From Betaproteobacteria bacterium (GTDB lineage: Bacteria; Pseudomonadota; Gammaproteobacteria; Burkholderiales; SG8-41): a DNA stretch of 64,000 bases. The notes under the pieces are model-generated. The model saw only the letters and a program-made list of their open reading frames with translations. It ran no database searches and was not told the DNA's origin. The position numbers and the translations under genes are program-made. Below, in pieces: positions 9,845 through 32,390 of this stretch. The stretch covers positions 274 through 64,273 of the forward strand of contig CANJHY010000001.1 in assembly GCA_947474275.1 (NCBI GenBank). Reading direction: 5' to 3'. Within the stretch, counting starts at the first letter, position 1. Each line of letters starts with the position of its first letter.

Positions 9845-9916
9845 GCACAGGGCGCAAATTCCGCGTCCTGAATTCGGATTTTGGTATGTGTGCCAAATGT
9901 GAGAGGTCAAGCCGCC

Positions 9917-14422: not shown

Positions 14423-14448
14423 GATCTTGCTCCGGTAAAATAAAGCCG

Positions 14449-15243
14449 TTAATTCGAATTTTTGCCAAACAAACGTTTCAGCATCTTAAGGCCGAAACCC
14501 GGTCCGGGTTGTCGCGACTGGCCTTTGGGCTCAAACACTCGAACGTCGTAGAGCAGTATATCGCGTAGCACGTCGGCGTCGCCAATCGGCTCGACGCCGT
14601 GAAACGAGTGATCGTTCTTGATAAAAGCGAACAGCGAATTCGGCCGGTATTCCATGGTTCTGACTTTATGGAAGAGCTTGTGCGGGTAATGTGGGCCGCC
14701 CCGGCAGCTAAACGCCGCATCGCGCGGCACGTAAATCGAGGTGCCGAGATGCTTCAGCGAATCATCATCGGGGCAATAGAACAGCATCGATAGCAGGCGG
14801 TGCGGTGCGTCCGTATGCGGACCTATGCTGAAGTTGGTCAGATCGCGCACGATCAGGGAATCCGCTTCAAAACCGCACTTGTAAATTTCATCGCCGAACC
14901 GTTCTTTGACGTAGGGTTCAAACTTGTCGATCATCGCGGTCAGAAATCTCTGCGTAATCAGCCAGCCTGAAAATTCGGTCCAGAACAGGCGGCGGGACTC
15001 ATCCAGCTTGTTGATCTCCGCTGGCGTGAACGGCATGACAAAGCGCTCGAGATACGCGCCTTTGGGAACCCGCCCGGTGTCGGCGAGGCTGGTCAGCGCC
15101 GAAGCGCCCGGCCAGTTGGCGCGCATTGCCGCGTAAAAATCGTCCGGAAATACGTTCTCGACGTAAATATGCGCGTACGGATACTCGCGGATCGGCGCGT
15201 TGGCGATCTGGTACAACACGTGTTCTTCAACGGAGGAAGACAT
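14449..15243 (-). CDS. 2OG-Fe(II) oxygenase-like protein
   Basis: YPYAHIYVENVFPDDFY opening, typical of 2OG-FeII_Oxy_5-type proteins. A possible HxD...H triad (GPHTDAP ... HSFHGVEP). Confidence 0.5.
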   Translation of the reverse strand: MSSSVEEHVLYQIANAPIREYPYAHIYVENVFPDDFYAAMRANWPGASALTSLADTGRVPKGAYLERFVMPFTPAEINKLDESRRLFWTEFSGWLITQRFLTAMIDKFEPYVKERFGDEIYKCGFEADSLIVRDLTNFSIGPHTDAPHRLLSMLFYCPDDDSLKHLGTSIYVPRDAAFSCRGGPHYPHKLFHKVRTMEYRPNSLFAFIKNDHSFHGVEPIGDADVLRDILLYDVRVFEPKGQSRQPGPGFGLKMLKRLFGKNSN

Positions 15244-16114
15244 AGTTCCCGACGCCCTTGAATGCGCCTTCAGTGCGTTGCGCCTGCGCCACCTGCTGCT
15301 CGGAATAACCGAACCCGAGCGACTTCATGTCGGCGATGATCTTGCGGTGTTGTTCCAGGTTGGTGTTGATTTCCACCAGCACCGATTTCAGGCGCGGGTC
15401 GGCGAGCACGCCACGGCAGCCGTCGAGCACCTTGTGCTCGAGTCCGTCGACGTCGATCTTGATGTGGTTGGGCGCCGGCACCACGCCTTTGTCCACCAGC
15501 AGGTCGAGGGTGGTCGAGACGCAGCCTTGCGACAGCAGGGTGTCGCGATGTTCCAGCCGGTGGTCGACCTTTTCGCCGAACGAGTGGCACGAACCGCCGA
15601 TCTGGAACTGGCTCAGATGCAGCAGCGAATAGCTGGCGGAATCGCTCAGCGCGAGGCAATAGGCGGTGACGTATTCCATCAAACCGTTGAGCACGATGTT
15701 GCGGCAAAGCAGCGCGTAGTTTTGCGACTCCGGCTCGAACGCAAACGTGCGTACCCCGCGTGTTTTGGCCGCCCATATCGTGTACATACCGACGTTGGCA
15801 CCGATGTCGACGAAAACTTCGTCCGCCTGGAATCCCCTGATCCATTCGATGGTGTCGGGTTCCTTGGTAAACAGCGAATCGACGCGCCACTTGGTGAATA
15901 CGTTGGGAGTCGCGTACGCCACCTCGGTGGTGCCGTCATTGACGGTCTGGTGCGGCTCCAGCATTTCGTATTGCTCGAGCGAAATCTGCGGCGCCAGCGG
16001 TGCCGTTTGGGCACCGGCGGAACGCCGCAAGTTGTGTAAAGGCCACAGCAGTACGCGAAAGACATTCATGGGTAAATTGTGACGGGGAACGGCATTGTGA
16101 ACGAGCGCGGTCAT
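15227..16114 (-). CDS. FkbM-family SAM-dependent methyltransferase
   Basis: VFVDIGANVGMYTIWAA...FAFEPESQNYALLCRNI and HIKIDVDGLEHKVL. The start is uncertain (16114 or ATG at 16069). It overlaps the downstream gene by 17 nt. Confidence 0.75.
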   Translation of the reverse strand: MTALVHNAVPRHNLPMNVFRVLLWPLHNLRRSAGAQTAPLAPQISLEQYEMLEPHQTVNDGTTEVAYATPNVFTKWRVDSLFTKEPDTIEWIRGFQADEVFVDIGANVGMYTIWAAKTRGVRTFAFEPESQNYALLCRNIVLNGLMEYVTAYCLALSDSASYSLLHLSQFQIGGSCHSFGEKVDHRLEHRDTLLSQGCVSTTLDLLVDKGVVPAPNHIKIDVDGLEHKVLDGCRGVLADPRLKSVLVEINTNLEQHRKIIADMKSLGFGYSEQQVAQAQRTEGAFKGVGNYVFLR

Positions 16115-16236
16115 AATGCCGGCGGACGCCTGCCCGTGACGAGTTTTCTTTAAAAAAGAAACGCTTACATTATCAAGCTGGAGGGATTACCGCGTCAATA
16201 GCGCGGCGGTTGCTGTAGTATGCAGAAGCAAGCCCC

Positions 16237-18003
16237 ATGCTACCCGCCGCCAACGTGATGCTGACCAATTTAATTTCGCGCCTGTTTTCTTCGCGCTCGC
16301 CGCGTTCGCCGGAAGCCGCGCGCGGCGCCATCGACGACTTGCTGCAGCGGGGGTATCGCAGTCAGCAGGCCGGTGAGCGCGCCGTCGCGGAAAATAACTA
16401 CCGCGACGCGCTCAAAATCGATGCGCTGCATGCCCACGCGCATTACCTGCTGGGCGCGCTGCTGGGCGAGGGTGGAAATTTCACCGACGCGGCGGCCCAT
16501 CTCGATCGGGCGCTCGCCGCGAGGCCGGATTTCGCCGCTGCCCATGCGGCACGCGGCAACGTATTTCTCATGCTAGAAGAGCGGCAGGCCGCCATTGCAA
16601 GTTACGAGCAGGCGCTGCGGCTGGACCCCGGCAACGCCGCGGCGCATTGCAATCTGGGACTGATCTGGCAGGCGGCCGGCGCGAGCGAACAGGCGTTGTT
16701 GCGATTCGAGCGTGCGTATGCGCTTGCGCCGGAAATTCCCGACCTGCTGAAAAACCTGACGTTGTCCTATATCGAGTTCGAACGCTATGAAGAAGCGCAG
16801 GCATTGCTGCAGGCAGTTTTAGCGCAGACACCAAGGCGCATCGAAACGCTCAAATGCCTTGGGCTGGTGCTGCAGAAACTGCACCGCCCGCAAGAGGCGC
16901 TGCAGCACTACCTGACCGTGCGCGCGATCGACGGCGCCGATGCCGAGCTCCTGAACAATCTCGGCATCGTGTATCAGGATCTCGGGCGGCTCGAAGAGGC
17001 GATCGCGGCTTATGACGCGGCCATCTTGCTCAAGTCTGATTTTACGCTGGCCATCTGGCACCGCTCGCTTGCTTATTTGTTGCAGCACGACTTCGCACGC
17101 GGCTGGCCGGACTACGAATTGCGGCTGCTGGGCGCCGACCGCCGGCCACGAGCTGCGGAGGGTGCGAACTGGGACGGTGGCGCGTTGGCGGGTAAAAAAT
17201 TGCTGGTCTACGCGGAGCAGGGCCTGGGCGATGAGATCATGTTCGCATCCTGCATTCCGGACGTGGTGGCCGCGGGCGCGAATTGCGTGATCGAATGCTC
17301 CCCCAAGCTTGAGAAGCTGTTCCGGCGCTCGTTTCCGCAAACCGCGGTTCGTGCAACGAACCCGGACAAGTCGCTGCCCGCCGGTGCCGGCGAGATGGAC
17401 CTCGACCTGCAAAGCTCGATCGGCAGCCTGCCGCAGTACTTGCGCCGCGCGCGCGCGGATTTCCCGCAGCACAGCGGCTATTTGCGCGCCGATCCGCAGG
17501 CGGTCGCGGCATGGCGGGAGCGTCTCGCCGCGCTTGGGCCCGGCCTCAAAGTGGGTATCTCATGGCAGGGCGGCACGCACAAATCGCGGCGCCCGGTGCG
17601 CTCCATGCCGCTTGCGCAATGGCTGCCGATCCTGCAGATGGAAGGCGCGCACTTCGTCGATCTCCAATATACCGACTGCCGCGCTGAAATTGATGAACTG
17701 CGCGCGGCCACGGGCGTCACGGTGCACAGTTGGAACGAAGTACGCGCCGACTACGAGCAGGCGGTGGCGCTGGTCACGGCCCTCGATCTTGTAATCAGCG
17801 TGTGCACCGCCGTTATTCACCTGGGCGGCGCGCTCGGCACGCCGGTATGGGTGATGGCGCCGTACAGTCCCGAGTGGCGCTATGGAATTGCCGGGCAGGA
17901 GATGCCTTGGTATCCTTCGGTGCGCGTGTTCCGGCAGTCCGTGTATGGAGAATGGGGCGCGGTTATTGATGATGTCGCGCAATCATTGCGTAAGATGGCC
18001 TGA
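16237..18003 (+). CDS. TPR-repeat protein fused to GT9-like (GT-B, heptosyltransferase-like) glycosyltransferase domain, paralog 1
   Basis: N-terminal TPR repeats. C-terminal LLVYAEQGLGDEIMFASCIPD, GYLRADP, GISWQGGT..RSMPL, DLVISVCTAVIHLGGALGTPVWV and PWYPSVRVFRQ. Confidence 0.8.
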   Translation: MLPAANVMLTNLISRLFSSRSPRSPEAARGAIDDLLQRGYRSQQAGERAVAENNYRDALKIDALHAHAHYLLGALLGEGGNFTDAAAHLDRALAARPDFAAAHAARGNVFLMLEERQAAIASYEQALRLDPGNAAAHCNLGLIWQAAGASEQALLRFERAYALAPEIPDLLKNLTLSYIEFERYEEAQALLQAVLAQTPRRIETLKCLGLVLQKLHRPQEALQHYLTVRAIDGADAELLNNLGIVYQDLGRLEEAIAAYDAAILLKSDFTLAIWHRSLAYLLQHDFARGWPDYELRLLGADRRPRAAEGANWDGGALAGKKLLVYAEQGLGDEIMFASCIPDVVAAGANCVIECSPKLEKLFRRSFPQTAVRATNPDKSLPAGAGEMDLDLQSSIGSLPQYLRRARADFPQHSGYLRADPQAVAAWRERLAALGPGLKVGISWQGGTHKSRRPVRSMPLAQWLPILQMEGAHFVDLQYTDCRAEIDELRAATGVTVHSWNEVRADYEQAVALVTALDLVISVCTAVIHLGGALGTPVWVMAPYSPEWRYGIAGQEMPWYPSVRVFRQSVYGEWGAVIDDVAQSLRKMA

Positions 18004-18038
18004 ACTTCCGGTCCGATTAACCACTACGGCAGCACTTC

Positions 18039-18716
18039 ATGATCAAAGTTTTTATCGGCTACGACTCGCGCGAGGCGGCCGCATACAGCGTGTTGGCCCA
18101 TAGCATTCATGCCAGGGCATCGGTGCCGGTGGCGGTAGTGCCGGTGATGTTGAGCGAGTTGAAAGGCGTGTTGACGCGCGAACGCCATCCGCTGCAGTCG
18201 ACCGATTTTTCGTTTTCGCGCTTTCTGACGCCCTTTCTGTCCGACTACCAGGGCTGGTCCATATTCATGGACTGCGACATGCTGGTGCTCGACGACATTG
18301 AGAAACTGTATGCGCTGCGCGACGAGCGCTATGCGGTCATGGTGGTAAAGCACGACCACGTGCCCAAAGAGACCCGCAAATTTCTCGATCAGCCGCAAAC
18401 CGCATACCAGAAGAAAAACTGGTCGAGCGTGATGCTGTTCAACAACGCGCAGTGCCGCGCGCTGACGCCCGACTACGTCAATACTGCATCGGGCCTCGAA
18501 CTCCATCAATTCAAATGGCTGGCGAACGACGAACTGATCGGTGAAATTCCGGCGCGCTGGAACCACCTCGTTGGCTACAACGCGCCGAACCGCGATGTGT
18601 CACTGGTGCATTACACCCTGGGCGGGCCGTACTTTCAGGAGTACCGCGATTGCGAGTACGCGGACGAGTGGCGGGCCGCGCGGCAGGACATGCTGAACGT
18701 CGAGCAACGCAAATGA
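18039..18716 (+). CDS. GT-A type (GT8-like) nucleotide-sugar transferase
   Basis: MIKVFIGYDSRE... with DxD (FMDCDMLVLDD). Family assignment is from memory only. Confidence 0.55.
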   Translation: MIKVFIGYDSREAAAYSVLAHSIHARASVPVAVVPVMLSELKGVLTRERHPLQSTDFSFSRFLTPFLSDYQGWSIFMDCDMLVLDDIEKLYALRDERYAVMVVKHDHVPKETRKFLDQPQTAYQKKNWSSVMLFNNAQCRALTPDYVNTASGLELHQFKWLANDELIGEIPARWNHLVGYNAPNRDVSLVHYTLGGPYFQEYRDCEYADEWRAARQDMLNVEQRK

Positions 18717-18756
18717 ACGCGCCGCGCGAACCCCGCATCGCGGCTGACCGCGTTGC

Positions 18757-20634
18757 ATGCTGAGCGGGCTTTCCCGGCTTTGGCATTCATTGTTCGCGGG
18801 GCGTGGTAAAACTGCGCTGAATCCAGCCGCCGCCGCATTGCCCGACAGCGCGTACCGGCCATCAGCGTGGTTCGATAGCGGCTTGCGTCTGCTCGCCACT
18901 CATGATGCGGCTGGAGTCGACGCGCTGCTGAGCGAGCCCCTGCAGCGTGACCGCGCCGAATTGGAATGTTTGCGCGCAGGACTCGCGCTCATGCGCGGCG
19001 ATCCCCGTGCCGCCTTTGCGCACGCCGGGGCCGCACTCGCTTTGCGTGGCGGTTTTTCAGCTGCTCATTTGTGCGGGGCACGCGCAGCGCGTGTATTGGG
19101 CCGGCACCAGGCCGCGCTCGCCGGGTTTGCGCGGGCGACCGATTTGCATCCCGACGACGCTGAGGCCTGGGCTGCACAAGCCGCAGAGCACATTGCGCTT
19201 GGTCAGAGCGAGGATGCGCGCGATTGCTACGAGGTTGCCCTTGCGCACGCGCCGGATTGCGCGGCCGCGAGACTGGGCCTTTCGCGCCTGGAGCGCGAGG
19301 CGGGTGCCGCCGCCGCGGCGCTCGCGCACATTGAACATGCATTGCGTGTCGCGCCAAGCGATGCGGATATACATTTCGAGTCAGCGCTGGTTCGCAGCCG
19401 TTGCGGCGACGTGCCGGGCGCGATTGCGGCGTATGAGTGCGTGCTCGAACTCAGCCCCGGTTACGCGGCGGCATGCACCAACCTGGGTTTGATGTATTTG
19501 GCGCACCTCGGCGACTCGCGCCGCGCGCAGCAGTATTTCGAGCGCGCAATCGAACTCGAGCCGTCTTCCGTGGGGGCGCAGGCCAACCTCGGCCTTGCTC
19601 TGGCCGAGCAGGGGCAGCTCCAAGCGGCGCTCGCCCATTACGAAAAATTGATTGCCGCTTATCCCGCGGAAAGCGAATATCGCTGGAACCGCGGACTCGC
19701 CCTGCTCGGTAGCGGCGATTACGCGCGCGGGTGGGAAGACTACGAAATGCGCAACGCGCGCGGCAGCGGCGCCGCGCCGCGCGTTTTTCCTTATCCTGCG
19801 TGGCAGGGCAAAGCACTGCGCGGCGCCGCCGCCTTGCTGGTTTACGGCGAGCAGGGGCTGGGCGATGAAATGATGTTCGCCTCGTGCGTGCCGGATTTGC
19901 TCGCGCGGGGAATATCCTGTGTCATCGAGTGCGATGCGCGGTTGGCGGGCCTGTTCGCGCGTTCATTCCCCGCCGGCAGTGTGCATGGCGCTCCACGTGA
20001 CGGTGATCGCCGCTGGCTGGCGGAATACCCGCAGATCGAGACGCAGATCGCGATCGGCAGCCTGCCGCGCCTGTTGCGGCGGAACGCCGCTGAATTTCCG
20101 GCGCACTCCGGCTATCTGCGCGCCGATCCGGCGCGCACCGCGCAATGGCGTGCCCAGCTGGCGGCCGGGGGCGGCGCTTACTGCGTTGGAATTTCCTGGC
20201 GCGGCGGCACCGCGAAGACGCGCCGCGATCTGCGCTCGATGCCGCTGCGCGAACTGATGCCGTTGCTTGCGATTCCGCGCATTAAATTTATCAGTCTCGA
20301 GCGCGCGGCAGACGACGAACTGGCTGAAATCAAGGCGATGTGCGGAGCCGACGTATTGAGTTTCGTCGAAGCGCTGGAGGACATGGACGGGCTGGCGGCG
20401 CTTTTGCAGGCGCTCGATGGCGTAGTTACCGTAGACAACACCGTGGCGCATTTGGCTGGGGCCCTCGGCCGCAAGGCCTGGATCATGTTGCCCCACGACG
20501 CCGACTGGCGCTGGCAGCGCGTGCCGGCCGCCAGTCCGTGGTACCCGTCGGTCAGGCTGTGCCGGCAGCCGGCTCCGGGAGATTGGGCAACAGTGGTCGG
20601 GCAGGTGCGCGCGGAATTGGCGTCGCTTTGCTGA
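18757..20634 (+). CDS. TPR + GT9-like glycosyltransferase, paralog 2
   Basis: TPR repeats. LLVYGEQGLGDEMMFASCVPD, GYLRADP, GISWRGGT, VDNTVAHLAGALGRKAWIM and PWYPSVRLCRQ. Confidence 0.8.
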   Translation: MLSGLSRLWHSLFAGRGKTALNPAAAALPDSAYRPSAWFDSGLRLLATHDAAGVDALLSEPLQRDRAELECLRAGLALMRGDPRAAFAHAGAALALRGGFSAAHLCGARAARVLGRHQAALAGFARATDLHPDDAEAWAAQAAEHIALGQSEDARDCYEVALAHAPDCAAARLGLSRLEREAGAAAAALAHIEHALRVAPSDADIHFESALVRSRCGDVPGAIAAYECVLELSPGYAAACTNLGLMYLAHLGDSRRAQQYFERAIELEPSSVGAQANLGLALAEQGQLQAALAHYEKLIAAYPAESEYRWNRGLALLGSGDYARGWEDYEMRNARGSGAAPRVFPYPAWQGKALRGAAALLVYGEQGLGDEMMFASCVPDLLARGISCVIECDARLAGLFARSFPAGSVHGAPRDGDRRWLAEYPQIETQIAIGSLPRLLRRNAAEFPAHSGYLRADPARTAQWRAQLAAGGGAYCVGISWRGGTAKTRRDLRSMPLRELMPLLAIPRIKFISLERAADDELAEIKAMCGADVLSFVEALEDMDGLAALLQALDGVVTVDNTVAHLAGALGRKAWIMLPHDADWRWQRVPAASPWYPSVRLCRQPAPGDWATVVGQVRAELASLC

Positions 20635-20709
20635 TCATACGGTCCGCGGCGGGCGCAAGCCGCAGGCCGGCGGCCCGGCGGCTGTGGCCGTAGTACACTT
20701 TCCGTTCCC

Positions 20710-22128
20710 ATGCGAGCCGAAGAACCTCAGATCGCGACTGCCAAGCAGGTGCTGCAAATTGCGCGGCAGCACTACGGCGCGGGGCGGATGACGGAGGCCG
20801 CGAGCATTTGCCGCGATGTGCTCGACACGGATGCCGGCAGCTTCGATGCGCTTCATCTGCTGGGCGCAATTTCGCACAAGGATGGCAATTACGACAGGGC
20901 GGTAAAGTTGATCGGGCGCGCAATTGCGTTGAGTCCGGACAACCCGTTTTTTCTGAACAATCTCGGCGAGGCCCTGCGCGAGCTGAACCGTCCGCGTGAA
21001 GCCGAACAGCAGTATCGCCGCGCGCTGGCGCTCAAGGCCGATTTCGCCGGGGCGCAGAACAATCTCGGCAACGCGCTGAAAGCCCAGGGTCGGTACGACG
21101 AAGCCGCGGCGAGCTATCAGGAAGCGATGCGGCTGGACCCGGCATATACCTCAGCGCGGCTCAACTACGCGCTGCTCCTGTTGCTGTGCGGAGATTACGC
21201 TGCCGCGTTTACGTTATATGAGCAGCGTTACGACGGGGCCGATCCTCGGCACGTGAGTTCCGCGCGCGACCTGTTCGATCGCATGCAGGAGGTGCCGCGG
21301 TGGCAGGGCGAGCCGCTGGCGGGCAAGCGTCTGCTCGTCTGGACTGAGCAGGGGCTGGGCGACTGCGTCATGATGATGCGCTACCTGCCGCAGTTGAAGG
21401 GCCGCGGCGCTCAGCGCGTCATCGTCTATTGCGCCGCGCCGCTGGTGCGGCTCATGCGCGCGACGGCCGGGGTCGATGAGGTGATCTCGCAGGACGATCC
21501 GCTGATCGAAGGGTCCTTCGACCGGCACTGTCCGCTGATGAGTTTGCCGCATTTGTGCGAAACCCGGCTAGAGACAGTGCCGCGGGAAGTGCCTTATGTG
21601 CGGGTGGCGGCGGACCTGCAGCGCACGTGGGCCGCGAGGCTCGAAGCGGTTGCGCGTCCGCGGGTGGGGCTGGTGTGGGCGGGCGCGAAGCGCACTCTGA
21701 CTGAAGCGCGGCGCAGCACCCGGCTGCAGGCCTTTGCGCCGTTGCTGGATGCTGGCGGGGTGCAGTTCGTTAGTCTGCAGAAAAATGAAGATGCGCGGCA
21801 ACTGGAATTCGCGAAATGGCCGCTGTTCGATGCGATGGACGAATGCGGCGACCTGCTGGAGACCGCGGCCTTGATCGAGCAGCTCGATCTCGTCATCAGC
21901 ATCGACACGTCGGTCGCGCACCTCGCCGGCGCTTTGGGCAAGCCGGTATGGTTGCTGACGCGCGGTGACAGCGCATGGCAGTGGTTGCTGGGGAGGGAAG
22001 ATTCGCCGTGGTATCCGACGATGCGCATATTCCGCCAGCCGCCGGGCGGCAACTGGCATGATCTGATGACGGATGTCGCAGCCAGGTTCAAAACGATGAG
22101 AATGCATTTAACAGGGGCTGCGCTTTGA
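20710..22128 (+). CDS. TPR + GT9-like glycosyltransferase, paralog 3 (most divergent, shortest TPR arm)
   Basis: LLVWTEQGLGDCVMMMRYLPQ, GLVWAGA, IDTSVAHLAGALGKPVWLL and PWYPTMRIFRQ. Confidence 0.8.
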   Translation: MRAEEPQIATAKQVLQIARQHYGAGRMTEAASICRDVLDTDAGSFDALHLLGAISHKDGNYDRAVKLIGRAIALSPDNPFFLNNLGEALRELNRPREAEQQYRRALALKADFAGAQNNLGNALKAQGRYDEAAASYQEAMRLDPAYTSARLNYALLLLLCGDYAAAFTLYEQRYDGADPRHVSSARDLFDRMQEVPRWQGEPLAGKRLLVWTEQGLGDCVMMMRYLPQLKGRGAQRVIVYCAAPLVRLMRATAGVDEVISQDDPLIEGSFDRHCPLMSLPHLCETRLETVPREVPYVRVAADLQRTWAARLEAVARPRVGLVWAGAKRTLTEARRSTRLQAFAPLLDAGGVQFVSLQKNEDARQLEFAKWPLFDAMDECGDLLETAALIEQLDLVISIDTSVAHLAGALGKPVWLLTRGDSAWQWLLGREDSPWYPTMRIFRQPPGGNWHDLMTDVAARFKTMRMHLTGAAL

Positions 22129-22904
22129 AAAAAAAGCACCATCTGCCGAGTATTTACACTGAAACCGGACTGATCTATCTGTGGGACTACCTGTTGGCGC
22201 ATCACGGCGTCCAGGAGCGGGCAGCCGTCAATCATGACGCGCTCGGTTTACTCGCGCACTGTCTGACGCGATTTCCGCAATCGAAGGCCCACCTGCTGCA
22301 GGACCTGTATGTCACTTATAAACTGGCCGACAGAAAAAACAGGTTTTTCGTCGAGTTCGGCGCTGCTGACGGCGTGTTTCTGAGCAACACCCATCACCTC
22401 GAGAAAAACCTCGGGTGGCGCGGTATTCTTGCCGAACCTTTCCCCGGCTGGCGCGACCCGCTGCGCGCGAACAGAAACGCTGCTGTCGACTATCGGTGCG
22501 TGTGGCGGGAGTCGGGCAAGCAGCTTGAATTCCTGGCCGCCAACCGGTATCCGGAATTGTCGTCGCTTAAAAGCTTTGCCGGGAATGATATGCACGCCGA
22601 GTCCCGCCTGGTTGACGCAGAAACATTCATGGTCGATACCGTGTCCCTGAATGATTTGCTGGCGGAGCACGGCGCGCCCGCATCGATCGACTATCTGTCC
22701 GTCGACACCGAGGGCAGCGAATTCGATATCCTCGAGACTTTCGATTTTGCGAAGTACCAGGTCCGCGTGATCACGGTAGAGCACAATTTCAAGCCTGACG
22801 CGCGCGAGTCCATTCAGCGCTTGCTGGAGTCCAATGGTTTCCGGCGGGAGTTTGAAATCTTCTCCAAGGGCGATGACTGGTATTTTCATCCGGACCGAAT
22901 GTGA
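22125..22904 (+). CDS. FkbM-family methyltransferase
   Basis: TTG 22125 overlaps the upstream TGA (TTGA). FFVEFGAADGVFLSNT...GILAEP and IDYLSVDTEGSEFDIL. Confidence 0.75.
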   Translation: MKKKHHLPSIYTETGLIYLWDYLLAHHGVQERAAVNHDALGLLAHCLTRFPQSKAHLLQDLYVTYKLADRKNRFFVEFGAADGVFLSNTHHLEKNLGWRGILAEPFPGWRDPLRANRNAAVDYRCVWRESGKQLEFLAANRYPELSSLKSFAGNDMHAESRLVDAETFMVDTVSLNDLLAEHGAPASIDYLSVDTEGSEFDILETFDFAKYQVRVITVEHNFKPDARESIQRLLESNGFRREFEIFSKGDDWYFHPDRM

Positions 22905-22955
22905 TGGATTCAGCGGCTTGTAACCGGCAGGGGCGTTCATGGTTCGCGTGATCCA

Positions 22956-24278
22956 ATGAAATGCGCCGTCGTCACCCCGGTCGGTCCCGGCCATGAATTG
23001 TACGCACTGGACGCCGAAGATTCGGTCAATCATGCCTTCGCCACGGCGCAAGGGCCGTTTTCCGATATTCTTTTCATCAAGATCGATGATACGCAAGGCA
23101 AGCTGGGGCGCTCGGCGGCACGCAACCAGGGCGTGCGGCAGGCGCAAGACGCAGGTGCCGACTGGATATTCTTCCTCGATGCGGACGACGTGCTGTGCGC
23201 GCAGGCGTTCGCCAACGTAACGCACGAGCTGCACCGCCATGATGCGATATGGGGCGCGATCCATGAGCTTGCCGCGGACGAGGAGCATGGCGTCCTGCGC
23301 CCGGACCAATTGCTGGAAATCACGCGTATCGATCAGCTCCTCGGCAACGATCCGTTTATCACGCTGCAGATCGGGCATTTCGTGAAGACCGCGGCGGCGC
23401 TGGCCACGCCTTTCGACCCGCAGCTCGATGCGGGCGAGGATTTCGACTACTACCTGCGGATGTGGTCGCAATTCAATTGCGTCAAGATCGGGCGGCCGTT
23501 TTTTTTCAACCGCCGCGATACGTATGCGGGCGGCCCGCGCGCAGCGACCAATCGCGACTGGCGCATGGCGGTCGAACGCATCATCTGCGAGAAATGCATC
23601 GGACTGGATTTCCATGCGGAGTTTACGCTGCGCGGGGAAAAGCTCCGGTTTTACGTTACCAACCCGTTCGACCTGATCCAGCGCAGTTTTCTCAAGGGGC
23701 GGTTTTTCGAGCCCGGCGAACTTGCTTTTGTCGAAAGCTGGGTTGCGGCGGACGCCGCAATTGTCGAAGTGGGCGCTTATGTCGGCAACCACGTCGTCTA
23801 CTATGCGCGGTTCATGCGACCGCGCAGCATCACGGTAATTGAGCCCAATCCCGATGCCATTGCGCTGCTGCGCCGGAACCTCGCGGAAAATGCTGTAACC
23901 AACGCCGATCTCTCGTTGCTTGGCAGCGGGGCTTCAGATCGGGTTGCAACTTACGACATCGTGCGTACGAGCGACAACAATATCGGCGCGAGCCGATTGG
24001 TGCCCGCCGTAGCCGGCGTGGTTAAATCGGCGCCGCTCGACGATTTGATTGCGCACCCGGTGGATTTCATCAAGATCGACGTCGAAGGCATGGAGCTCGC
24101 AGTCCTCGCCGGCGCCCGGCGCATCATCGCCGAGTCGCGGCCCAAGATCATGATCGAAGTGTTCCGGCACCAGATTGCGGATTTCGAAACGTGGCTGCAG
24201 CAGAACCACTACCGCATCAAACATCGTTTCGATTATGTGCACGCGGTGAATTTCATGATAGAACCCGCCGATGAGTGA
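22956..24278 (+). CDS. GT2-like glycosyltransferase fused to a C-terminal FkbM methyltransferase domain
   Basis: N-terminal VVTPVGPGHE...RNQGV...WIFFLDADDVL (GT-A, DxD). C-terminal IVEVGAYVGNH...VIEPNP...FIKIDVEGMELAVL. Confidence 0.7.
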   Translation: MKCAVVTPVGPGHELYALDAEDSVNHAFATAQGPFSDILFIKIDDTQGKLGRSAARNQGVRQAQDAGADWIFFLDADDVLCAQAFANVTHELHRHDAIWGAIHELAADEEHGVLRPDQLLEITRIDQLLGNDPFITLQIGHFVKTAAALATPFDPQLDAGEDFDYYLRMWSQFNCVKIGRPFFFNRRDTYAGGPRAATNRDWRMAVERIICEKCIGLDFHAEFTLRGEKLRFYVTNPFDLIQRSFLKGRFFEPGELAFVESWVAADAAIVEVGAYVGNHVVYYARFMRPRSITVIEPNPDAIALLRRNLAENAVTNADLSLLGSGASDRVATYDIVRTSDNNIGASRLVPAVAGVVKSAPLDDLIAHPVDFIKIDVEGMELAVLAGARRIIAESRPKIMIEVFRHQIADFETWLQQNHYRIKHRFDYVHAVNFMIEPADE

Positions 24279-25983
24279 CGCCGCCGCAAACACCGCTGTC
24301 GAACTGCACCGGCAGGGCGCGCAATTGCGCGAACGCGCGCAGTACGCCGCCGCCGAGCGCAGCCTGCTGCGCGCGCTGGAGCTTGAGCACGATTTCGCGG
24401 CGGCGCATTTTGAGCTGGCGCTGACCTATCGCGACCAGGGCAAACTCGAAGACGCCGCCGATTATTTCCAACTGGCCGCCCACTTTGCGCCGGAGTTCGC
24501 CGCCGCCTCGTTCGAGCTCGCCGAAACGCTGGTGAAACTCGAACGCGCCGAAGCGGCGCTAGCGGCGTACCGGCAGGCGCTCGCGCGCGATGGCCGGCAC
24601 GGCGCCGCGTGGCGGGGTCTGGGCAATCTGCTGAAAACGGGCGGCGAGCTGAACGAAGCGATCGATTGCTACCGGTCTGCCGTCGAGTGCGCGCCGGCGA
24701 GCGCGGACGCGCGTGGCCGCCTCGCTTACGCGCTTTACCGGGCGGGCCGTTATGCAGAGGCGCGGCGGAGTTTCGATGCCGCTTTGGCGCTCGAACCGAA
24801 CTGGCTGGAGGCGCATCACAATCTGGGCCTGCTGCTGCTGGAGACCGGCGAGCCGGCCGCGGCGCTGCAGAGTTTCGAGCGCGCGCGCGCGCTCGGCCCG
24901 GATGTTGTCGAGACCCGCGCTTGTGTTGCGCACGCGCTGCGCGATCTCGGCCGCCTGGACGAGGCCGTTGCGCATTACGATGCGGTGCTTGCCCGGTCTC
25001 CCCAATTTGCCGATGCCGTCATCAATCGCAGTTACGCACTGCTGATGCGGGACGACTATGCGGCCGGCTGGGGCGCCTACGCGCAGCGCTTCGCGAGCGG
25101 CGCCATGGTGGCGCGCGGTTTTCCCTACCCGGAATGGCAGGGCCAGCCGCTGGCGGGCAAACGCCTGCTGGTCTATGCCGAGCAGGGTCTGGGCGATGAA
25201 ATCATGTTTGCGTCCTGCCTGCCCGACTTGCTGCGGACCGGCGCGCACTGCGTAATTGAATGCAACACGCGGTTGACGGCGTTGTTCCAGCGCTCGTTTC
25301 CGCAGGCGAGCGTCCATGGCGCGGACAAGAACGACGACAAGCACTGGCTGAAAAAATTGCCGCCGGTGGATTTTCAGGCGGCCATCGGGTCGCTGCCACA
25401 GTATTTGCGGCGGTCGCGCGCCGATTTTCCCGCGCGCGGCGGCTATCTGGTGGCTGACGCGCAGCGCAGCGGGGCTTGGCGCCGGAAACTGGTGGCAGGG
25501 ACCGCGCTGCGGGTGGGCATTGCCTGGCGCGGCGGCACGCCGCGCTCGCGGCAGTTCGTGCGCTCGACTGTCTTGCCGCAGTGGTTGCCCATCCTGCGCA
25601 GCACGGGCGCGACGTTTTGCGCTTTGCAGTATGGGGATATCGCGGCCGAGCTGGAAGATTTGCGCGCTCAATCCGGCATAGCTGTCGCGCAACTCGGCGC
25701 TGCGGTCAATGACCTCGACGAACTCGCGGCCATCATCGGCGCGCTCGACCTGGTCATCAGCATAGACAATACCGTGGCGCATGTGGCGGGCGCGCTCGGG
25801 CAAGCCGTGTGGACCCTGCTGCCGGACAGTCCCGAATGGCGCTATCCGCGGCGCGGAATGGCGATGCCCTGGTATCCATCCATGCGTCTCTTTCATCGCG
25901 CCGGCGGCGAAACCTGGCCGCCGGTAATCGAACGCGTCGCGGCGGAGTTGGCCGGCTTGGCGGCGCGTGGACGTGAAAGCTGA
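24271..25983 (+). CDS. TPR + GT9-like glycosyltransferase, paralog 4
   Basis: ATG 24271 overlaps the upstream stop by 8 nt. LLVYAEQGLGDEIMFASCLPD, GYLVADA, GIAWRGGT, IDNTVAHVAGALGQAVW and PWYPSMRLFHR. Confidence 0.8.
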   Translation: MSDAAANTAVELHRQGAQLRERAQYAAAERSLLRALELEHDFAAAHFELALTYRDQGKLEDAADYFQLAAHFAPEFAAASFELAETLVKLERAEAALAAYRQALARDGRHGAAWRGLGNLLKTGGELNEAIDCYRSAVECAPASADARGRLAYALYRAGRYAEARRSFDAALALEPNWLEAHHNLGLLLLETGEPAAALQSFERARALGPDVVETRACVAHALRDLGRLDEAVAHYDAVLARSPQFADAVINRSYALLMRDDYAAGWGAYAQRFASGAMVARGFPYPEWQGQPLAGKRLLVYAEQGLGDEIMFASCLPDLLRTGAHCVIECNTRLTALFQRSFPQASVHGADKNDDKHWLKKLPPVDFQAAIGSLPQYLRRSRADFPARGGYLVADAQRSGAWRRKLVAGTALRVGIAWRGGTPRSRQFVRSTVLPQWLPILRSTGATFCALQYGDIAAELEDLRAQSGIAVAQLGAAVNDLDELAAIIGALDLVISIDNTVAHVAGALGQAVWTLLPDSPEWRYPRRGMAMPWYPSMRLFHRAGGETWPPVIERVAAELAGLAARGRES

Positions 25984-27472
25984 TCCTGCGATGCGCGCCA
26001 CGTTCGACGCCGGACTTGCGGCTTATGCGGCGGGTAACTTTGCGGCGGCGGTCGAATGTTTCAACCGGGTGGTTGACGAGCGGCACGATGACGCGGATGC
26101 TCACAACAATCTCGGCCTGAGTTATCTTGCGCTGGGCGAATATGAAGACGCGGCAGATGCGTTCACACTGGCAGTGCATTTCCGCCCGCAATTTCCGCCG
26201 GCGTTTTACAACATGGCGTTGGCGGCACTTGGTCTCGGCGAACTCGGACAGGCGGTGACCAGTCTTGAACGGGCGCTCGCATTGCAACCCGATTTTGCCA
26301 CCGCCCATAGTACGCTCGGCTACGTGCTCAGCCATCAGGTGGGCGAATTCGAAGCAGGTGCCACGCATGTCCGCAAGGCGATGGAACTCGATCCGGCGGA
26401 TCCCGACGTGCGGTGCAATTTCAGCGCGATCCTCATCCAGGAGGGGCGCGCGGAAGAAGCGTTGGCAATTTGCCGTGAGCTGCTGGCCGCGCATCCAGCT
26501 ATGCACGAGGCGCAGCTGAATCAGGCGCTGGCCAATCTGAAGCTCGGCCGTTTTGAAGCAGGATGGCCCGACTACGAAGCGCGCAAGCGCGCGCGCGGCA
26601 ATTACTTGCCACGTACGTTGCCGCTGGCGGAGTGGCAGGGTGAGCCGCTCGCATCCGGCAAACTGCTTATTTATGCCGAGCAGGGCGTAGGCGATCAGAT
26701 CATGTTTGCATCCTGCGTGCCTGCATTGCTGCCGAAGCTCGCGACGTGCGTGATCGAATGTGCGCCCAAGCTGGTGCAGCTGTTTCAGCGTTCGTTCCCG
26801 GGCGCAACGATAGTGTCGCAGCAGGAAGGGGACGCAAATCTCGCGCGGCTGGCGCAAGCGGCTGGCATCGATCGCCAGGTTGCCATCGGCAGCCTGCCCG
26901 CCCAATTTCGCAAGCAGCGGGCCGATTTTCCGGCGCATGTAGGCTATCTGCGTGCCGATGCTGCGCGGGTTGACTACTGGAAGCAGCGTCTGGACACCCT
27001 GGGGCAGGGATTAAAAATCGGCATCGCATGGTCGGGCGGAGCGCCGACCACGCAGGGTGCGAGCCGCTCGATGCAACTCGCGGACTGGTTGCCGGTACTC
27101 GGGCAGGCAGGGTGCCATTTCGTGAGCCTGCAACACGGCGACGTCGCCGGCGAACTCGCCGCATGGGCGCGCGCGCAACGCATCCCGCTTCACCACTGGC
27201 GCGACGCCGTCGAGAACTATGATGAAACGGCGGCGCTGGTGACGGCACTCGACCTGGTGATTTCGGTGCAGACCGCACTGGTACATCTGGCCGGCGCGCT
27301 CGGCAGGCCCGCATGGGTCGTATTGCGCGCGGCTGCGGAATGGCGTTACCTCGAGCACGGAGACGAGATGCCATGGTACCCCAGCGTGCATTTGTTCCGG
27401 CAGCAGAGTGCTGGCGACTGGGCGCCCGTGGTCGCGCGTATCGCGCAGGAACTCGCGCAACACGCGCGGTAA
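25967..27472 (+). CDS. TPR + GT9-like glycosyltransferase, paralog 5
   Basis: LLIYAEQGVGDQIMFASCVPA, GYLRADA, GIAWSGG, VQTALVHLAGALGRPAWV and PWYPSVHLFRQ. An alternative ATG lies at 25991. Confidence 0.8.
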   Translation: MDVKADPAMRATFDAGLAAYAAGNFAAAVECFNRVVDERHDDADAHNNLGLSYLALGEYEDAADAFTLAVHFRPQFPPAFYNMALAALGLGELGQAVTSLERALALQPDFATAHSTLGYVLSHQVGEFEAGATHVRKAMELDPADPDVRCNFSAILIQEGRAEEALAICRELLAAHPAMHEAQLNQALANLKLGRFEAGWPDYEARKRARGNYLPRTLPLAEWQGEPLASGKLLIYAEQGVGDQIMFASCVPALLPKLATCVIECAPKLVQLFQRSFPGATIVSQQEGDANLARLAQAAGIDRQVAIGSLPAQFRKQRADFPAHVGYLRADAARVDYWKQRLDTLGQGLKIGIAWSGGAPTTQGASRSMQLADWLPVLGQAGCHFVSLQHGDVAGELAAWARAQRIPLHHWRDAVENYDETAALVTALDLVISVQTALVHLAGALGRPAWVVLRAAAEWRYLEHGDEMPWYPSVHLFRQQSAGDWAPVVARIAQELAQHAR

Positions 27473-29022
27473 TGATCATGTTGTGGTCGATACTCAGAAG
27501 CCTGGCAAGTAAACCCGCAGCCAACCCTGCGGGCGCCGTGCGCGGCACCGGGCTCGAAACGGGCATCGCGTGTTTTAACGCGCAGGACTTCGCCGGCGCG
27601 TCCCGGGATCTCAGCGCGGCGCTGGATGCGGAACCCGATAATTTCGTCGCGGCATACTACCTGGCGCTGGCTGCGGCGCACAGCGGCCGCCTGGAACGCG
27701 CGCAGGAGTTGCTGGAAGCGGCGTGCGCGCGGCGCAATGATGCGGACGCGCACAGTGCGCTGGGCAATGTCTATCGCCTGCAAGGACGCGCGGCCGACGC
27801 CGAGCAGAGCTATCGCCGCGCGCTGGCGGTGGACGCGGGACATCTCACCGCGCTCGCCAATCTAGGCCTTTCATTGCGTGACCGCGGTGTGCCGCGCGAG
27901 GCGCTGCTCCTGCTCGATCGCGCGCTCAAGCTGGCGCCGAATCACGTGGAGGCGATTTTCAACAAGGCGCTGGTGCTGACTGATCTCGGCGAGCGCGAAG
28001 CCGCCGCCGCATTGATCGAGCGCGTGCTCGCGCTCGACCCGAATTTCGCCGAGGCGCATTTGCAGCGCGGATTCTCCCTGCTGAAGCAGGGGAATTTCGC
28101 CGCAGGGTGGGACGAGTATGCATGGCGCACCCGCATACCCGAGGTCGACCATTGGCAGGAATACGCCTACCCGCATTGGCAGGGTGAAGCGCTCGAAGGC
28201 AAACGCCTGCTGGTGCAGGCGGAACAGGGCTTGGGCGATCAGATCATGTTTGCATCCTGTCTGCCGGACCTCCTGCCGCGCGCGCGGCACACCGTGCTCG
28301 AATGCGATCCGCGGCTGGCCCGCTTGTTCGCGCGCAGCTTTCCGCCCGCCGTGGTCTATCGCCATCGTGTCGAGGGCGCGCCCGACTGGTCGGGCGAAGC
28401 CGCGCCGGATTACCGCGTTCGCATGGGTGATTTGCCACGCATAATGCGCAGGTCAAAGGCGGATTTCCCCGCGCATCGCGGCTATCTGCTTGCCGACGCT
28501 GCGCAGGTTGCGGCATGGCGCGCGCGGCTCGACGCCCTGGGGCGTGGTCTCAAGGTCGGCGTGTCGTGGCGCGGCGGCACGCCGGGCACCGGCCAGGCGG
28601 CGCGTTCACTCGCGCTCGACGCGCTGCTGCCGTTATTGAGGTTGCCGCGTGCGCATTTTATTTCCCTGCAGTACGGCGCGGTCGGCGCTGAAATCGCCGA
28701 TCTGCGCGTGCGTCACGGCATCGTGCTGCACGAATGGTCGCAGGCGGACGCCGCGATGGACGGCGTTGCGGCTTTGATCGCGAGCCTCGATCTGGTCATC
28801 ACGGTGTGCACGACTGCGGTCCACCTGTCCGGAGCGCTGGGCAAGCCCGCGTGGGTCATGGTCCCCGCCGTTGCGGAGTGGCGCTATCTGGAAACCGGCG
28901 CGCATCTTCCGTGGTATCCGGCGCTGCGGCTGTTTCGTCAGCAGAACCCTGGCGCATGGGACGGTGTCGTCGCAGACGTCAGGACGGAACTGGTGCGCGA
29001 AATCGACGCCGCTCACGGGTAA
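27472..29022 (+). CDS. TPR + GT9-like glycosyltransferase, paralog 6
   Basis: ATG 27472 overlaps the upstream TAA (TAATG). LLVQAEQGLGDQIMFASCLPD, GYLLADA, GVSWRGGT, CTTAVHLSGALGKPAWV and PWYPALRLFRQ. The 27313 extension lies inside paralog 5 and is discounted. Confidence 0.8.
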   Translation: MIMLWSILRSLASKPAANPAGAVRGTGLETGIACFNAQDFAGASRDLSAALDAEPDNFVAAYYLALAAAHSGRLERAQELLEAACARRNDADAHSALGNVYRLQGRAADAEQSYRRALAVDAGHLTALANLGLSLRDRGVPREALLLLDRALKLAPNHVEAIFNKALVLTDLGEREAAAALIERVLALDPNFAEAHLQRGFSLLKQGNFAAGWDEYAWRTRIPEVDHWQEYAYPHWQGEALEGKRLLVQAEQGLGDQIMFASCLPDLLPRARHTVLECDPRLARLFARSFPPAVVYRHRVEGAPDWSGEAAPDYRVRMGDLPRIMRRSKADFPAHRGYLLADAAQVAAWRARLDALGRGLKVGVSWRGGTPGTGQAARSLALDALLPLLRLPRAHFISLQYGAVGAEIADLRVRHGIVLHEWSQADAAMDGVAALIASLDLVITVCTTAVHLSGALGKPAWVMVPAVAEWRYLETGAHLPWYPALRLFRQQNPGAWDGVVADVRTELVREIDAAHG

Positions 29023-29319: not shown

Positions 29320-29334
29320 TGGTATGGAACTTGC
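29320..29334 (+). promoter_or_regulatory. sigma54 (-24/-12) type promoter for pilin 1
   Basis: TGGTATGGAACTTGC fits TGGYAY-N5-TTGC with correct GG/GC spacing, about 80 nt upstream of ATG 29416. Confidence 0.55.
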
Positions 29335-29415: not shown

Positions 29416-29835
29416 ATGAAGCGTATTCAACGGGGCTTTACCCTGATCGAACTGATGATCGTCGTTGCGATTATCGGTATTCTGGCGGCGGTCGCGCTGC
29501 CCGCGTATCAGGACTACACGATTCGCGCAAAAGTGTCGGAAATTGTATTGCAGGCCAGCGGCTTCAAAACGACTATCGCCGAGAAATCTGCATCGGACGG
29601 CACCATGTCGAGTTCCGGCATGGGTCTGACCGTCAGCACCGGCGGACGCGTCGCCGGCGGTAGCGTTACCGATAACGGCACCATCATAGTTATCGGCAGT
29701 GCGACTACTCTTGGTACCGACGTTACGGTTCAACTGCGTCCTTCGCTGGGCGCCGGCGGCCGTATCGCGTGGGAATGCTCCACGACTGGTACTTCGACCG
29801 CCTGGAAATACGTGCCGGCGGAATGCCGTCACTAA
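29416..29835 (+). CDS. pilA: type IV (IVa-like) major pilin, copy 1
   Basis: AAGGAG RBS. Leader MKRIQRG | [27 protein letters not shown] (prepilin peptidase site, class III signal). C-terminal Cys pair (WEC...AECRH). Confidence 0.9.
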
Positions 29836-30237: not shown

Positions 30238-30657
30238 ATGAAGCGTATTCAACGGGGCTTTACCCTGATCGAACTGATGATCGTCGTTGCGATTATCGGT
30301 ATTCTGGCGGCAGTTGCGCTGCCCGCGTATCAGGACTACACGATTCGTGCCAAAGTGTCGGAAATCGTACTAACGGCTAGCGGCTACAAAACCTCTGTTG
30401 CAGAGAAATCTGCGTCAGACGGCACCATGACAAGCTCCGGGATTGGTCTGACCGTCAACAGCGGCGGACGCGTCGCCGGCGGCAGCGTTACCGATACCGG
30501 CACCATAGTCGTTATCGGCAGCGCATCCTCTATTGGTACCGACGTTACGGTTCAACTGCGTCCTTCGATGGGCGCCGGTGGCCGTATCGCGTGGGAATGC
30601 TCGACCCAGGGTACTACGAGTTCATGGAAATACGTGGCGGCGGAATGCCGTCACTAA
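30238..30657 (+). CDS. pilA: type IV (IVa-like) major pilin, copy 2
   Basis: AAGGGG RBS. The first 45 residues are identical to copy 1, and later differences are mostly Ser/Thr swaps. Confidence 0.9.
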
Positions 30658-32359: not shown

Positions 32360-32390
32360 CGCGGGGTCGCGAAATATTCCACTCGCAGGA

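Follow-up and report, generated by a model that had tools for sequence, protein, structure and literature searches.

Why do six paralogous glycosyltransferase-like genes stand directly upstream of three type IV pilin genes, and do their products act on those pilins? The locus that raises this question lies in a 64,000-nucleotide stretch (here called the window) of contig CANJHY010000001.1 from a Betaproteobacteria bacterium (GenBank assembly GCA_947474275.1). A first-pass annotation had described the six genes as tetratricopeptide repeat (TPR) proteins with a GT9-like glycosyltransferase (GT) domain and had left open whether their position beside the pilins reflects chance. We found that the adjacency is not coincidental, as two independent scans agree. 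We consider, with moderate confidence, that the locus is a soluble multi-enzyme module for O-glycosylation and methylation that is dedicated to the adjacent type IVa pilins.

The open reading frame (ORF) listing and translation gave nine ORFs on the forward strand between positions 16237 and 29022, with intergenic spacing of -17 to +75 nucleotides (nt). Stop/start overlaps were seen at three junctions (TTGA at 22125-22128, ATGAGTGA at 24271-24278 and TAATG at 27470-27474), in agreement with the earlier description of nine same-strand genes with short gaps or overlaps. The last array gene ends 393 nt before the first pilin gene; the close spacing had been noted correctly, but the value given, 394 nt, was not exact. 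The array and the pilin genes are as follows, with the six paralogs numbered T1 to T6 and all coordinates given in window positions.

16237..18003, forward strand: T1, TPR + GT9-like GT-B glycosyltransferase, 588 amino acids (aa), from the alignment, TPR matches in Pfam and a model of the C-terminal domain
18039..18716, forward strand: GT-A/GT8-like putative glycosyltransferase, 225 aa, with a sub-threshold PF01501 match and the DxD-type motif FMDCDML
18757..20634, forward strand: T2, TPR + GT9-like glycosyltransferase, 625 aa, from the alignment and Pfam
20710..22128, forward strand: T3, short-TPR + GT9-like glycosyltransferase, 472 aa, with PF01075 above the gathering score
22125..22904, forward strand: FkbM-family methyltransferase (PF05050, E 1.2e-18), whose TTG start overlaps the T3 stop codon
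22956..24278, forward strand: fusion of GT2 (GT-A) and FkbM methyltransferase, 440 aa (PF05050 and PF00535)
24271..25983, forward strand: T4, TPR + GT9-like glycosyltransferase, 570 aa, with a full-length AlphaFold2 model
25967..27472, forward strand: T5, TPR + GT9-like glycosyltransferase, ~493-501 aa, starting at GTG 25967 or ATG 25991
27472..29022, forward strand: T6, TPR + GT9-like glycosyltransferase, 516 aa, whose ATG overlaps the T5 stop codon (TAATG)
29320..29334, forward strand: sigma-54-like -24/-12 box (TGGTATGGAACTTGC) before pilin 1, by pattern match only
29416..29835, forward strand: pilin gene 1, type IVa major-pilin-like, 139 aa (PF07963, PF00114)
30238..30657, forward strand: pilin gene 2, 86% identical to pilin 1
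30819..31235, forward strand: pilin gene 3, 138 aa, GTG start, ~70% identical to pilins 1 and 2

T6 likely starts at ATG 27472 rather than at the longest-ORF start, 27313.

T1 to T6 are 33-42% identical to one another over their full length and 32-50% identical over a C-terminal domain of ~300 aa. Strong TPR matches were obtained from Pfam in all six. In the alignment, the blocks EQGxGD, GxxWxGG, HLxGALG and PWYP are partly invariant, and every motif block that the first-pass annotation had quoted for the shared TPR-plus-C-domain architecture was found. The boundary between the two parts falls at about residues 163-322 in these proteins of 472-625 aa. AlphaFold2 modeled full-length T4 (89 sequences) with a predicted local distance difference test score (pLDDT) of 94.8 and a predicted template modeling score (pTM) of 0.89. 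The model has 16 helices that form an eight-repeat TPR superhelix (residues 2-273), followed by a GT-B domain (residues 298-569). Its best Foldseek matches are SPINDLY (SPY) and OGT (E 3e-17 to 1e-15), and the TPR part superposes on that of OGT at 2.5-2.7 A. The proposed OGT-like layout of a TPR arm and a GT-B domain is thus recovered in the model. The GT41 catalytic domain, PF13844, was not detected by Pfam in any of the six window paralogs.

The C-terminal domain of T1 was modeled on its own (pLDDT 79.8, pTM 0.84), and its best match in the PDB is the GT9 enzyme 3tov (E 1.4e-7, template modeling (TM) score 0.61). Further Foldseek matches were RfaF (1psw), WaaC and the protein O-heptosyltransferase TibC (4rap, 4rb4). 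The GT9 and TibC matches had E values of 1e-7 to 1e-4, and the GT9 structures 3tov, 1psw, 2h1h and 2gt1 matched with a probability of 1.0 and TM scores of 0.5-0.6. At the sequence level, the relationship is distant. T3 was the only paralog to pass the PF01075 cutoff of 22 bits (26.0 bits, E 6.8e-6); T2, T4 and T5 scored 17.6-19.1 bits, below cutoff, and T1 and T6 had no PF01075 match at E<=0.01, although T6 still aligns throughout the C-domain. The matches in the paralogs span just 30-45 residues. Among 146 family C-domains from related loci, PF01075 was nonetheless the sole Pfam family matched (81/146; best E 3e-8). EQGxGD (EQGLGD) aligns with VGD of RfaF, and HLAGALGxP aligns with HVAAALNRP of the same enzyme. 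All 146 sequences keep the E, the Q and the second G of EQGxGD, and conservation is 90% or more at the Asp and at the G-A-L-G positions.

PDB profile searches with 6- and 146-sequence C-domain profiles gave RfaF as the best hit (E 0.1-1), with none significant, and a CHMP1B match was judged spurious. With the full-length alignment as query, TPR proteins dominated the PDB matches, which carried no information on the catalytic domain. The NCBIfam names returned (MamA, PilW, PrsT and others) were sub-threshold and TPR-driven and were set aside.

Taken together, the models indicate enzymes built like OGT, SPY and FlmG, with a catalytic domain that is predicted to be a distant relative of GT9 and not a GT41 domain. 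The suggested resemblance to GT9 heptosyltransferases holds for the GT-B fold, which is nearest to GT9 by Foldseek, but is distant in sequence, with one paralog above the Pfam cutoff. Both checks that the first-pass annotation had proposed for these domains returned a glycosyltransferase assignment: profile searches matched a GT family (PF01075), mostly below cutoff, and structure prediction with Foldseek gave a GT-B fold closest to 3tov, RfaF, WaaC and TibC, and to SPINDLY and OGT at full length.

The C-domains of T1 to T6 share 46-60% identity at the DNA level. T1, T2, T4, T5 and T6 each have their own orthologs elsewhere, at 60-73% identity (60-94% for T4). T1 orthologs (up to 71% identity) are the first array gene in two related loci, L039 and L007, and T2 orthologs reach 69%; T3 is the most divergent paralog and has few orthologs. 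Because the orthologs of the other five are closer to them than the paralogs are to one another, and because array order is kept, the paralogs are old and not redundant. A recent tandem amplification was rejected on the basis of the DNA identity of 46-60% and of separate orthologs that are older than the species splits, as the first-pass annotation had concluded from divergence at the DNA level. A short, basic, amphipathic N-terminal motif precedes the TPRs in T1, T2 and T6 and in homologs P0026, P0058 and P0118 (for example LISRLFSS, LSRLWHSLF, LWSILRSL and LLARFKAS). This motif might be a docking or membrane-association helix.

We then considered how regularly such arrays occur with pilins. 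Scanning with the C-domain alignment, one genome per species, yielded 77 loci, mostly from uncultured Betaproteobacteria/Burkholderiales, with some contigs labelled Methylococcus, Planctomycetaceae, Nitrospira and others. In 57 loci, at least 1 kb of sequence was available beyond the last family gene, and a type IVa pilin gene of ~130 aa was present within 3 kb downstream on the same strand in 28 of these. The pilin detector agreed with precomputed Pfam labels. Pilin density was 14-fold higher in the downstream windows (41 in 158 kb) than elsewhere in the same loci (10 in 560 kb), with a Poisson P of 6e-33 that ignores relatedness among loci. When inverted and interleaved arrangements are included, the number of linked loci rises to ~40.

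The reverse scan started from the pilin. Metagenome contigs were searched with pilin 1, and a family gene ending no more than 4 kb upstream was counted. Such a gene was found in 8 of 10 contigs at a pilin identity of at least 60%, in 5 of 9 at 50-59%, and in 1 of 18 below 50% (Fisher P 1e-4). The linkage is therefore two-way and involves one pilin subfamily, which settles in favor of a real association the choice that the first-pass annotation had left open (28/57 loci and 14-fold in the forward direction; 8/10 versus 1/18 in reverse).

Many of the linked loci are syntenic with the window, with a CHASE2 cyclase, a GAF-PilB-like ATPase and a GAF-HD protein upstream and a SoxB-like gene downstream; about half lack those flanks. 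At least two flank contexts are represented: by our tally, the SoxB-like gene is near 19 linked loci and missing from ~21. What the linked loci have in common is a pilin, a TPR-GT, the small GT8-like enzyme and a 104-aa protein. Flagellin was detected in just 2 of the 83 loci probed (L079 and L062, which served as positive controls), and the same probe found none in the window or in the pilin-linked loci. The neighborhood survey that had been proposed as a check thus shows arrays traveling with pilins in relatives, with flagellin in 2/83 loci only. No sugar-nucleotide genes, including those for heptose biosynthesis, were present in the window cluster.

All three pilins have an MKRIQRG|-type prepilin N-terminus and two Cys residues near the C-terminus. 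Pilin 1, the only one scanned with Pfam, matched PF07963 (N_methyl, E 2.6e-10) and PF00114 (Pilin, E 6.5e-11), and pilins 2 and 3 share 86% and ~70% identity with it. The features of type IVa major pilins are present: a leader ending in G before FTLIELM, a hydrophobic alpha1 helix, a Pilin domain and a C-terminal Cys pair. Ser and Thr make up 22% of the residues. Near-identical sigma-54-like boxes (TGGTATGGAA(C/T)TTGC; pattern match only) precede pilins 1 (29320-29334) and 2 (30158-30172), and near-identical terminator-like hairpins follow them at 29882-29911 and 30704-30733. Pilin 3 has a 161-nt spacer without a sigma-54-like box. Together with their upstream regions, pilins 1 and 2 make up a tandem duplication (29023-30818). 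A scan for consensus sigma-70 promoters and terminators gave counts equal to those in shuffled sequence and was dropped as evidence.

None of the cluster enzymes has a membrane-spanning segment. Their top 19-residue hydropathy windows correspond to buried Rossmann strands, and the only membrane helix within the cluster is that of the pilins. Wzy_C, flippases and initiating transferases were absent from the 41 predicted window proteins scanned, and membrane proteins of the oligosaccharyltransferase route were absent from related arrays with Pfam-annotated genes. We rejected a lipid-linked route encoded in cis, because neither the cluster nor the scanned window proteins include such a membrane protein, flippase or transferase. 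Because membrane segments, Wzy_C, a flippase and an initiating transferase are all missing, the gene content favors direct, stepwise protein glycosylation by soluble enzymes over assembly on a lipid carrier.

We propose that the TPR superhelix of each sub-functionalized enzyme would hold the unfolded Ser/Thr-rich part of a prepilin. Binding would take place in the cytoplasm, either ahead of handover to the Sec/YidC insertion machinery or in the course of it. The GT-B domain, acting as an inverting enzyme, would then move a sugar from a nucleotide sugar onto Ser or Thr, with ADP-heptose, the donor of the nearest structural relatives, as a candidate. Extension of the glycan may fall to the GT2 domain and the small GT8-like enzyme, perhaps joined by the DUF5672 protein described below, and three FkbM methyltransferases could O-methylate the glycan. 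The 104-aa protein may serve as an adaptor or holdase.

Several points weigh against this proposal. Glycosylation of these pilins is a prediction from sequence. A type IV pilin has its globular part in the periplasm, and prepilin insertion probably follows the signal recognition particle (SRP)/Sec route; the enzymes must therefore act before translocation, which leaves a short window. The classical pilin glycosylation routes (TfpO/PilO, PglL and TfpW) are periplasmic. In addition, the GT9 sequence match is short and mostly below the Pfam cutoff, a pilin is absent from about a third of the related loci with enough flank, and many linked loci are syntenic relatives, so that the counts are not independent events. 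Since pilins 1 and 2 each have their own sigma-54-like box and terminator-like hairpin, they are probably transcribed on their own, apart from the array. Finally, array-linked pilins have 25% Ser+Thr and unlinked pilins 23%, and the idea that array-linked pilins are markedly richer in these residues was rejected on that comparison.

For the problem of topology, there are precedents. TibC and AAH heptosylate Ser/Thr residues of Sec-exported autotransporter adhesins in the cytoplasm. HMW1C acts likewise, also in the cytoplasm (PMC4550697). By analogy with TibC/AAH, HMW1C and FlmG, action before translocation is plausible.

Two of the alternatives retain a surface glycan and change its route or its target. 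The glycan could be built on a lipid carrier or other membrane acceptor and transferred en bloc in the periplasm by an oligosaccharyltransferase of the PglL/TfpO type encoded elsewhere, with the TPRs only holding the enzymes together. The nearest structural relatives, WaaC and RfaF, do use a lipid-linked acceptor, en bloc periplasmic transfer is the established pilin route in Proteobacteria, and the pilin linkage would be explained without a topological problem. We nevertheless regard this as unlikely. No initiating phosphoglycosyltransferase, flippase, Wzy_C protein or enzyme membrane protein is present in the cluster, in the scanned window proteins or in the Pfam-annotated related arrays, although such an enzyme could be encoded outside the window. 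Six separately conserved TPR arms are also hard to explain as scaffolds, and the characterized TPR-armed glycosyltransferases (OGT, SPY, FlmG and cyanobacterial Ogt) act directly on proteins (PMC7591256, PMC9306852). It is similarly improbable that the array targets another protein, such as a flagellin or adhesin encoded elsewhere, and that the pilin neighborhood is a variable surface-structure island inherited in one lineage. Distant family members do occur near flagellar genes (fliS/fliD on Azospirillum brasilense Sp7 p3; flagellin in L079 and L062), one member adjoins YadA-like adhesins on a Burkholderia glumae plasmid, one relative has a Maf-type glycosyltransferase with Pse/Leg-like genes, and many linked loci are syntenic. 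Against this, the linkage is two-way and falls with pilin divergence. It also persists without the SoxB-like and PilB-like neighbors, on contigs labelled Methylococcus, Rubrivivax, Methylibium and Hydrogenophilales. The pilin gene usually lies a few hundred bases past the last enzyme gene on the same strand, and no flagellin was found in the pilin-linked loci.

A further alternative takes the TPR-GTs to be regulatory, modifying cytoplasmic pilus machinery or signaling proteins (for example, the GAF-PilB-like ATPase) in the manner of OGT instead of the pilin. All of the enzymes are soluble, cytoplasmic targets would avoid the topological problem, and one large lineage has the array placed between its pilins and a block of CHASE2 cyclase, GAF-PilB-like ATPase and GAF-HD_5 genes. 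However, that ATPase/signaling block occurs in ~20 loci only, and the pilin linkage extends beyond them. Three methyltransferases and GT-A enzymes also imply an elaborate methylated glycan, which is typical of a surface structure and not of reversible signaling, and the variable accessory enzymes are as expected for a surface glycan under diversifying selection. We therefore consider a regulatory role very unlikely and return to glycosylation of the adjacent pilins by the soluble enzymes of the locus.

The closest known counterpart of such a module is cyanobacterial. In Synechococcus, PilA glycosylation depends on Ogt, a TPR + GT41 protein that lacks a secretion signal and whose gene adjoins pilA (PMC9306852, PMC12288463); ogt and pilA are adjacent in 38% of 201 cyanobacterial genomes (PMC9306852). 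Ogt is also needed for normal piliation, and the adjacency is widespread in the phylum (PMC9306852, PMC12288463). The first-pass statement that cytoplasmic GT-B enzymes are not a known route for pilin glycosylation overlooks this system (PMC9306852, PMC12288463). As in the Ogt-PilA systems (Synpcc7942_0051 of Synechococcus elongatus; OgtA of Nostoc), the window has the gene for a TPR-armed GT-B enzyme beside the major pilin gene or genes. Unlike the single GT41 enzyme of cyanobacteria, it encodes five or six conserved GT9-like paralogs together with GT-A enzymes, three methyltransferases and the 104-aa partner, and it is found in Betaproteobacteria and in a few further groups of Proteobacteria. 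In both systems, direct transfer of sugar to the pilin is a putative step.

The layout of the paralogs also resembles that of FlmG from Caulobacter crescentus and Brevundimonas. FlmG is a cytoplasmic protein of 596 aa with a TPR/GT boundary at about residue 310, whose TPR part binds the filament subunit and which modifies several paralogous flagellins before export (PMC7591256). Like the enzymes described here (472-625 aa), it combines an N-terminal TPR part of ~300 aa with a C-terminal GT-B domain of ~290 aa in a protein of ~600 aa. Unlike them, FlmG targets flagellins, which leave by flagellar type III export and not by Sec, with CMP-pseudaminic or CMP-legionaminic acid as donor; flagellin and Pse/Leg biosynthesis genes are not linked to the window cluster. 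FlmG has been described as confined to Caulobacterales (bioRxiv 10.1101/2023.12.03.569772).

With the bacterial autotransporter heptosyltransferases (BAHT; TibC, AAH) and the GT9 enzymes (WaaC, RfaF), the paralogs share the closest solved folds and the GxGD and nucleotide-sugar motifs. Those enzymes have no TPR arm, and sequence similarity to them is marginal (PDB profile E 0.1-1). The acceptors proposed here are neither autotransporters, as for BAHT, nor lipid A-core, as for GT9, but the BAHT precedent makes a cytoplasmic topology feasible by analogy. The TfpO/PilO, PglL and TfpW systems likewise have accessory glycosylation genes beside the major pilin and show glycan diversity among strains. 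In contrast, their central enzymes are polytopic membrane proteins that use lipid-linked donors in the periplasm, and no such enzyme was present in the cluster or in the scanned window proteins. Full-text searches of the literature gave no description of pilin-linked GT9-like arrays.

The module is bigger than the nine-gene block, to which a 104-aa protein, a third FkbM methyltransferase and a TPR-DUF5672 gene are added. The first-pass annotation had thus delimited nine genes correctly but missed three or four further parts.

14108..14422, reverse strand: conserved 104-aa protein, candidate adaptor, chaperone or regulator of the module
14449..15243, reverse strand: 264-aa soluble protein with homologs in related loci
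15227..16114, reverse strand: FkbM-family methyltransferase, third of the locus, divergent from the array (PF05050, TIGR01444)
31271..32485, reverse strand: TPR + DUF5672 protein, convergent on the pilins (PF18922 and TPR families)

The 104-aa protein had no Pfam, NCBIfam or PDB match. It belongs to a set of ~960 clusters, and every source name among the 120 matches listed is 'hypothetical protein'. Homologs at 41-88% identity are present in 37 of the other loci, and in 24 of the 28 pilin-linked loci with enough upstream flank, including distant ones. The gene usually adjoins the first TPR-GT gene. By analogy with GlfM of Maf-2 systems, its product could be an adaptor.

Methyltransferases and GT-A-type enzymes are interleaved with the paralogs, as had been described. 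Pfam assigned the FkbM gene at 22125-22904 and the GT2-FkbM fusion (PF05050, E 5.7e-19; PF00535, E 1.8e-6, 28.4 bits against a cutoff of 23.3), but the GT8 assignment stayed below threshold (PF01501, E 2.8e-4, 21.0 bits against a cutoff of 24.3). The GT8-like protein of 225 aa is the most conserved enzyme of the module (64-87% identity, ~40 loci) and has no sequence relatives in the PDB. Homologs of the fusion occur in 17 loci, and its architecture is kept in L001-L003. The third FkbM gene (PF05050, E 9.5e-10; TIGR01444, E 5.6e-24) has homologs in 15 loci. The 264-aa protein, which had no Pfam or NCBIfam match, has homologs in 16 related loci, where they adjoin the FkbM gene, and its HxD...H pattern, as judged from inspection of the sequence, is reminiscent of 2OG-Fe(II) oxygenases.

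The TPR + DUF5672 protein (PF18922, E 6.7e-20, plus TPR families) appears to be the seventh TPR-fused enzyme-like protein of the locus. A homolog in L044 is 96% identical to it, and translation of the window gene probably begins downstream of the TTG at 32485. In relatives, this position is occupied by a TylF-type methyltransferase, and accessory content varies among them in general, with FkbM or TylF methyltransferases, GT41, Maf and DUF5672 proteins. In the syntenic relative L001, two array members are TPR + GT41 proteins (PF13844, E 6e-48 and 4e-46, at 1719-3578 and 5943-7670), so that GT9-like and GT41 catalytic types are mixed in one pilin-linked array. Directly upstream of the pilin-linked array in L005 (1-6800; likewise in L006) are a Maf-type glycosyltransferase (MptE-like, E 1e-16) and PseB/PseC-like genes, and the L005 stretch also includes methyltransferases and genes for a CBS-nucleotidyltransferase and a B12 radical-SAM enzyme. 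Flagellin glycosylation islands typically have such a set, but no flagellin turned up in L005. A conserved core with a variable periphery would be expected for a surface glycan under diversifying selection.

No RNA families were found in the window with Rfam. GC content at the third codon position is 0.68-0.78 in the module genes (window 14000-32500) and 0.80-0.86 in flanking housekeeping genes, a difference that is consistent with past horizontal exchange of the module or with weaker codon adaptation. Upstream of the module is a conserved signaling/motor block (window 2374-13979) with the following genes.

2374-3351 and 3358-4941: CHASE2 domain + Ser/Thr kinase, split over two ORFs
5796-6557: FHA protein
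6793-9069: CHASE2 adenylate/guanylate cyclase
9881..12310, forward strand: GAF + PilB-like type IV pilus assembly ATPase (PF00437)
12321-13979: GAF + HD_5 protein

The GAF-PilB-like ATPase (PF00437, E 1.5e-111) has an extra N-terminal GAF domain and scored 481 bits with TIGR02538, against a cutoff of 676. Its homologs (66-90% identity) occur in 20 loci, and it lies upstream of the module in many syntenic loci. For the three genes of the block that we tested (cyclase, ATPase and GAF + HD_5), homologs were found in 16-24 related loci. The pilus locus is followed directly, on the reverse strand at 32391-36328, by genes for a SoxB-like protein, which matches the 5'-nucleotidase C-terminal domain only, and then SoxA, SoxZ and SoxY. 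From these Sox genes beside the pilus locus, the host is probably a sulfur-oxidizing betaproteobacterium. The closest contigs are metagenome-assembled genomes (MAGs) from Lac Pavin (L044, 94-96% protein identity) and L039.

The C-domain family extends well beyond pilin-linked loci. A profile of the six C-domains retrieved 45,837 cluster representatives at E<=1e-3 and 27,776 at E<=1e-30 from 1.84 billion proteins clustered at 50% identity. Single proteins have up to six copies of the module and reach 3,100 aa; one bacterial protein of 2,855 aa (P0121, L168:6001-14568) combines five TPR + GT9-like modules, and the annotation shows no pilin gene near this fused array. Members annotated as 'tetratricopeptide repeat protein' occur on plasmids and chromids, at up to 12 places per Azospirillum replicon. 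One copy on A. brasilense Sp7 p3 (L084) lies beside fliS/fliD, and another on the B. glumae plasmid NZ_CP033655 (L087) lies beside YadA-like adhesins and an OGT-like gene. These neighborhoods suggest that the TPR arm redirects a common catalytic domain toward different exported proteins. Relatives with C-domains 40-59% identical were also found on eight MAG contigs (L011, L013, L026, L036, L042, L047, L051 and L081) whose labels (Bordetella parapertussis, Streptomycetaceae, Streptomyces, Enterobacteriaceae and Methanoperedens) look unreliable; L011, L013, L026 and L051 also have the upstream signaling-block flanks of the window.

The family appears to be a general class of TPR-directed protein glycosyltransferases, with the branch in the window tied to pilins. 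A broader reading, which we offer tentatively and hold with less confidence than the dedication of the locus to its pilins, joins two proposals: an oligosaccharyltransferase-free pilin pathway made up of serial TPR + GT9-like enzymes, a 104-aa adaptor, GT-A extenders and methyltransferases, and a family that is a general class of protein O-glycosyltransferases. The TPR arms would then direct the enzymes to pilins here, to flagellins in Azospirillum-like loci and to YadA-like adhesins on the Burkholderia plasmid.

Type IV pili mediate adhesion, movement and DNA uptake and act as phage receptors, and their glycans alter all of these functions. If the proposed glycosylation of the adjacent pilins is true, the locus would represent a second, mechanistically distinct route of pilin glycosylation in Proteobacteria, beside the periplasmic oligosaccharyltransferases. 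A soluble stepwise route has so far been glimpsed once, with a single GT41 enzyme in cyanobacteria. The modular plan, in which the TPR selects the acceptor and the GT-B domain selects the donor, would be attractive for glyco-engineering, as has been argued for FlmG. The locus would also provide the first functional handle on a very large uncharacterized family.

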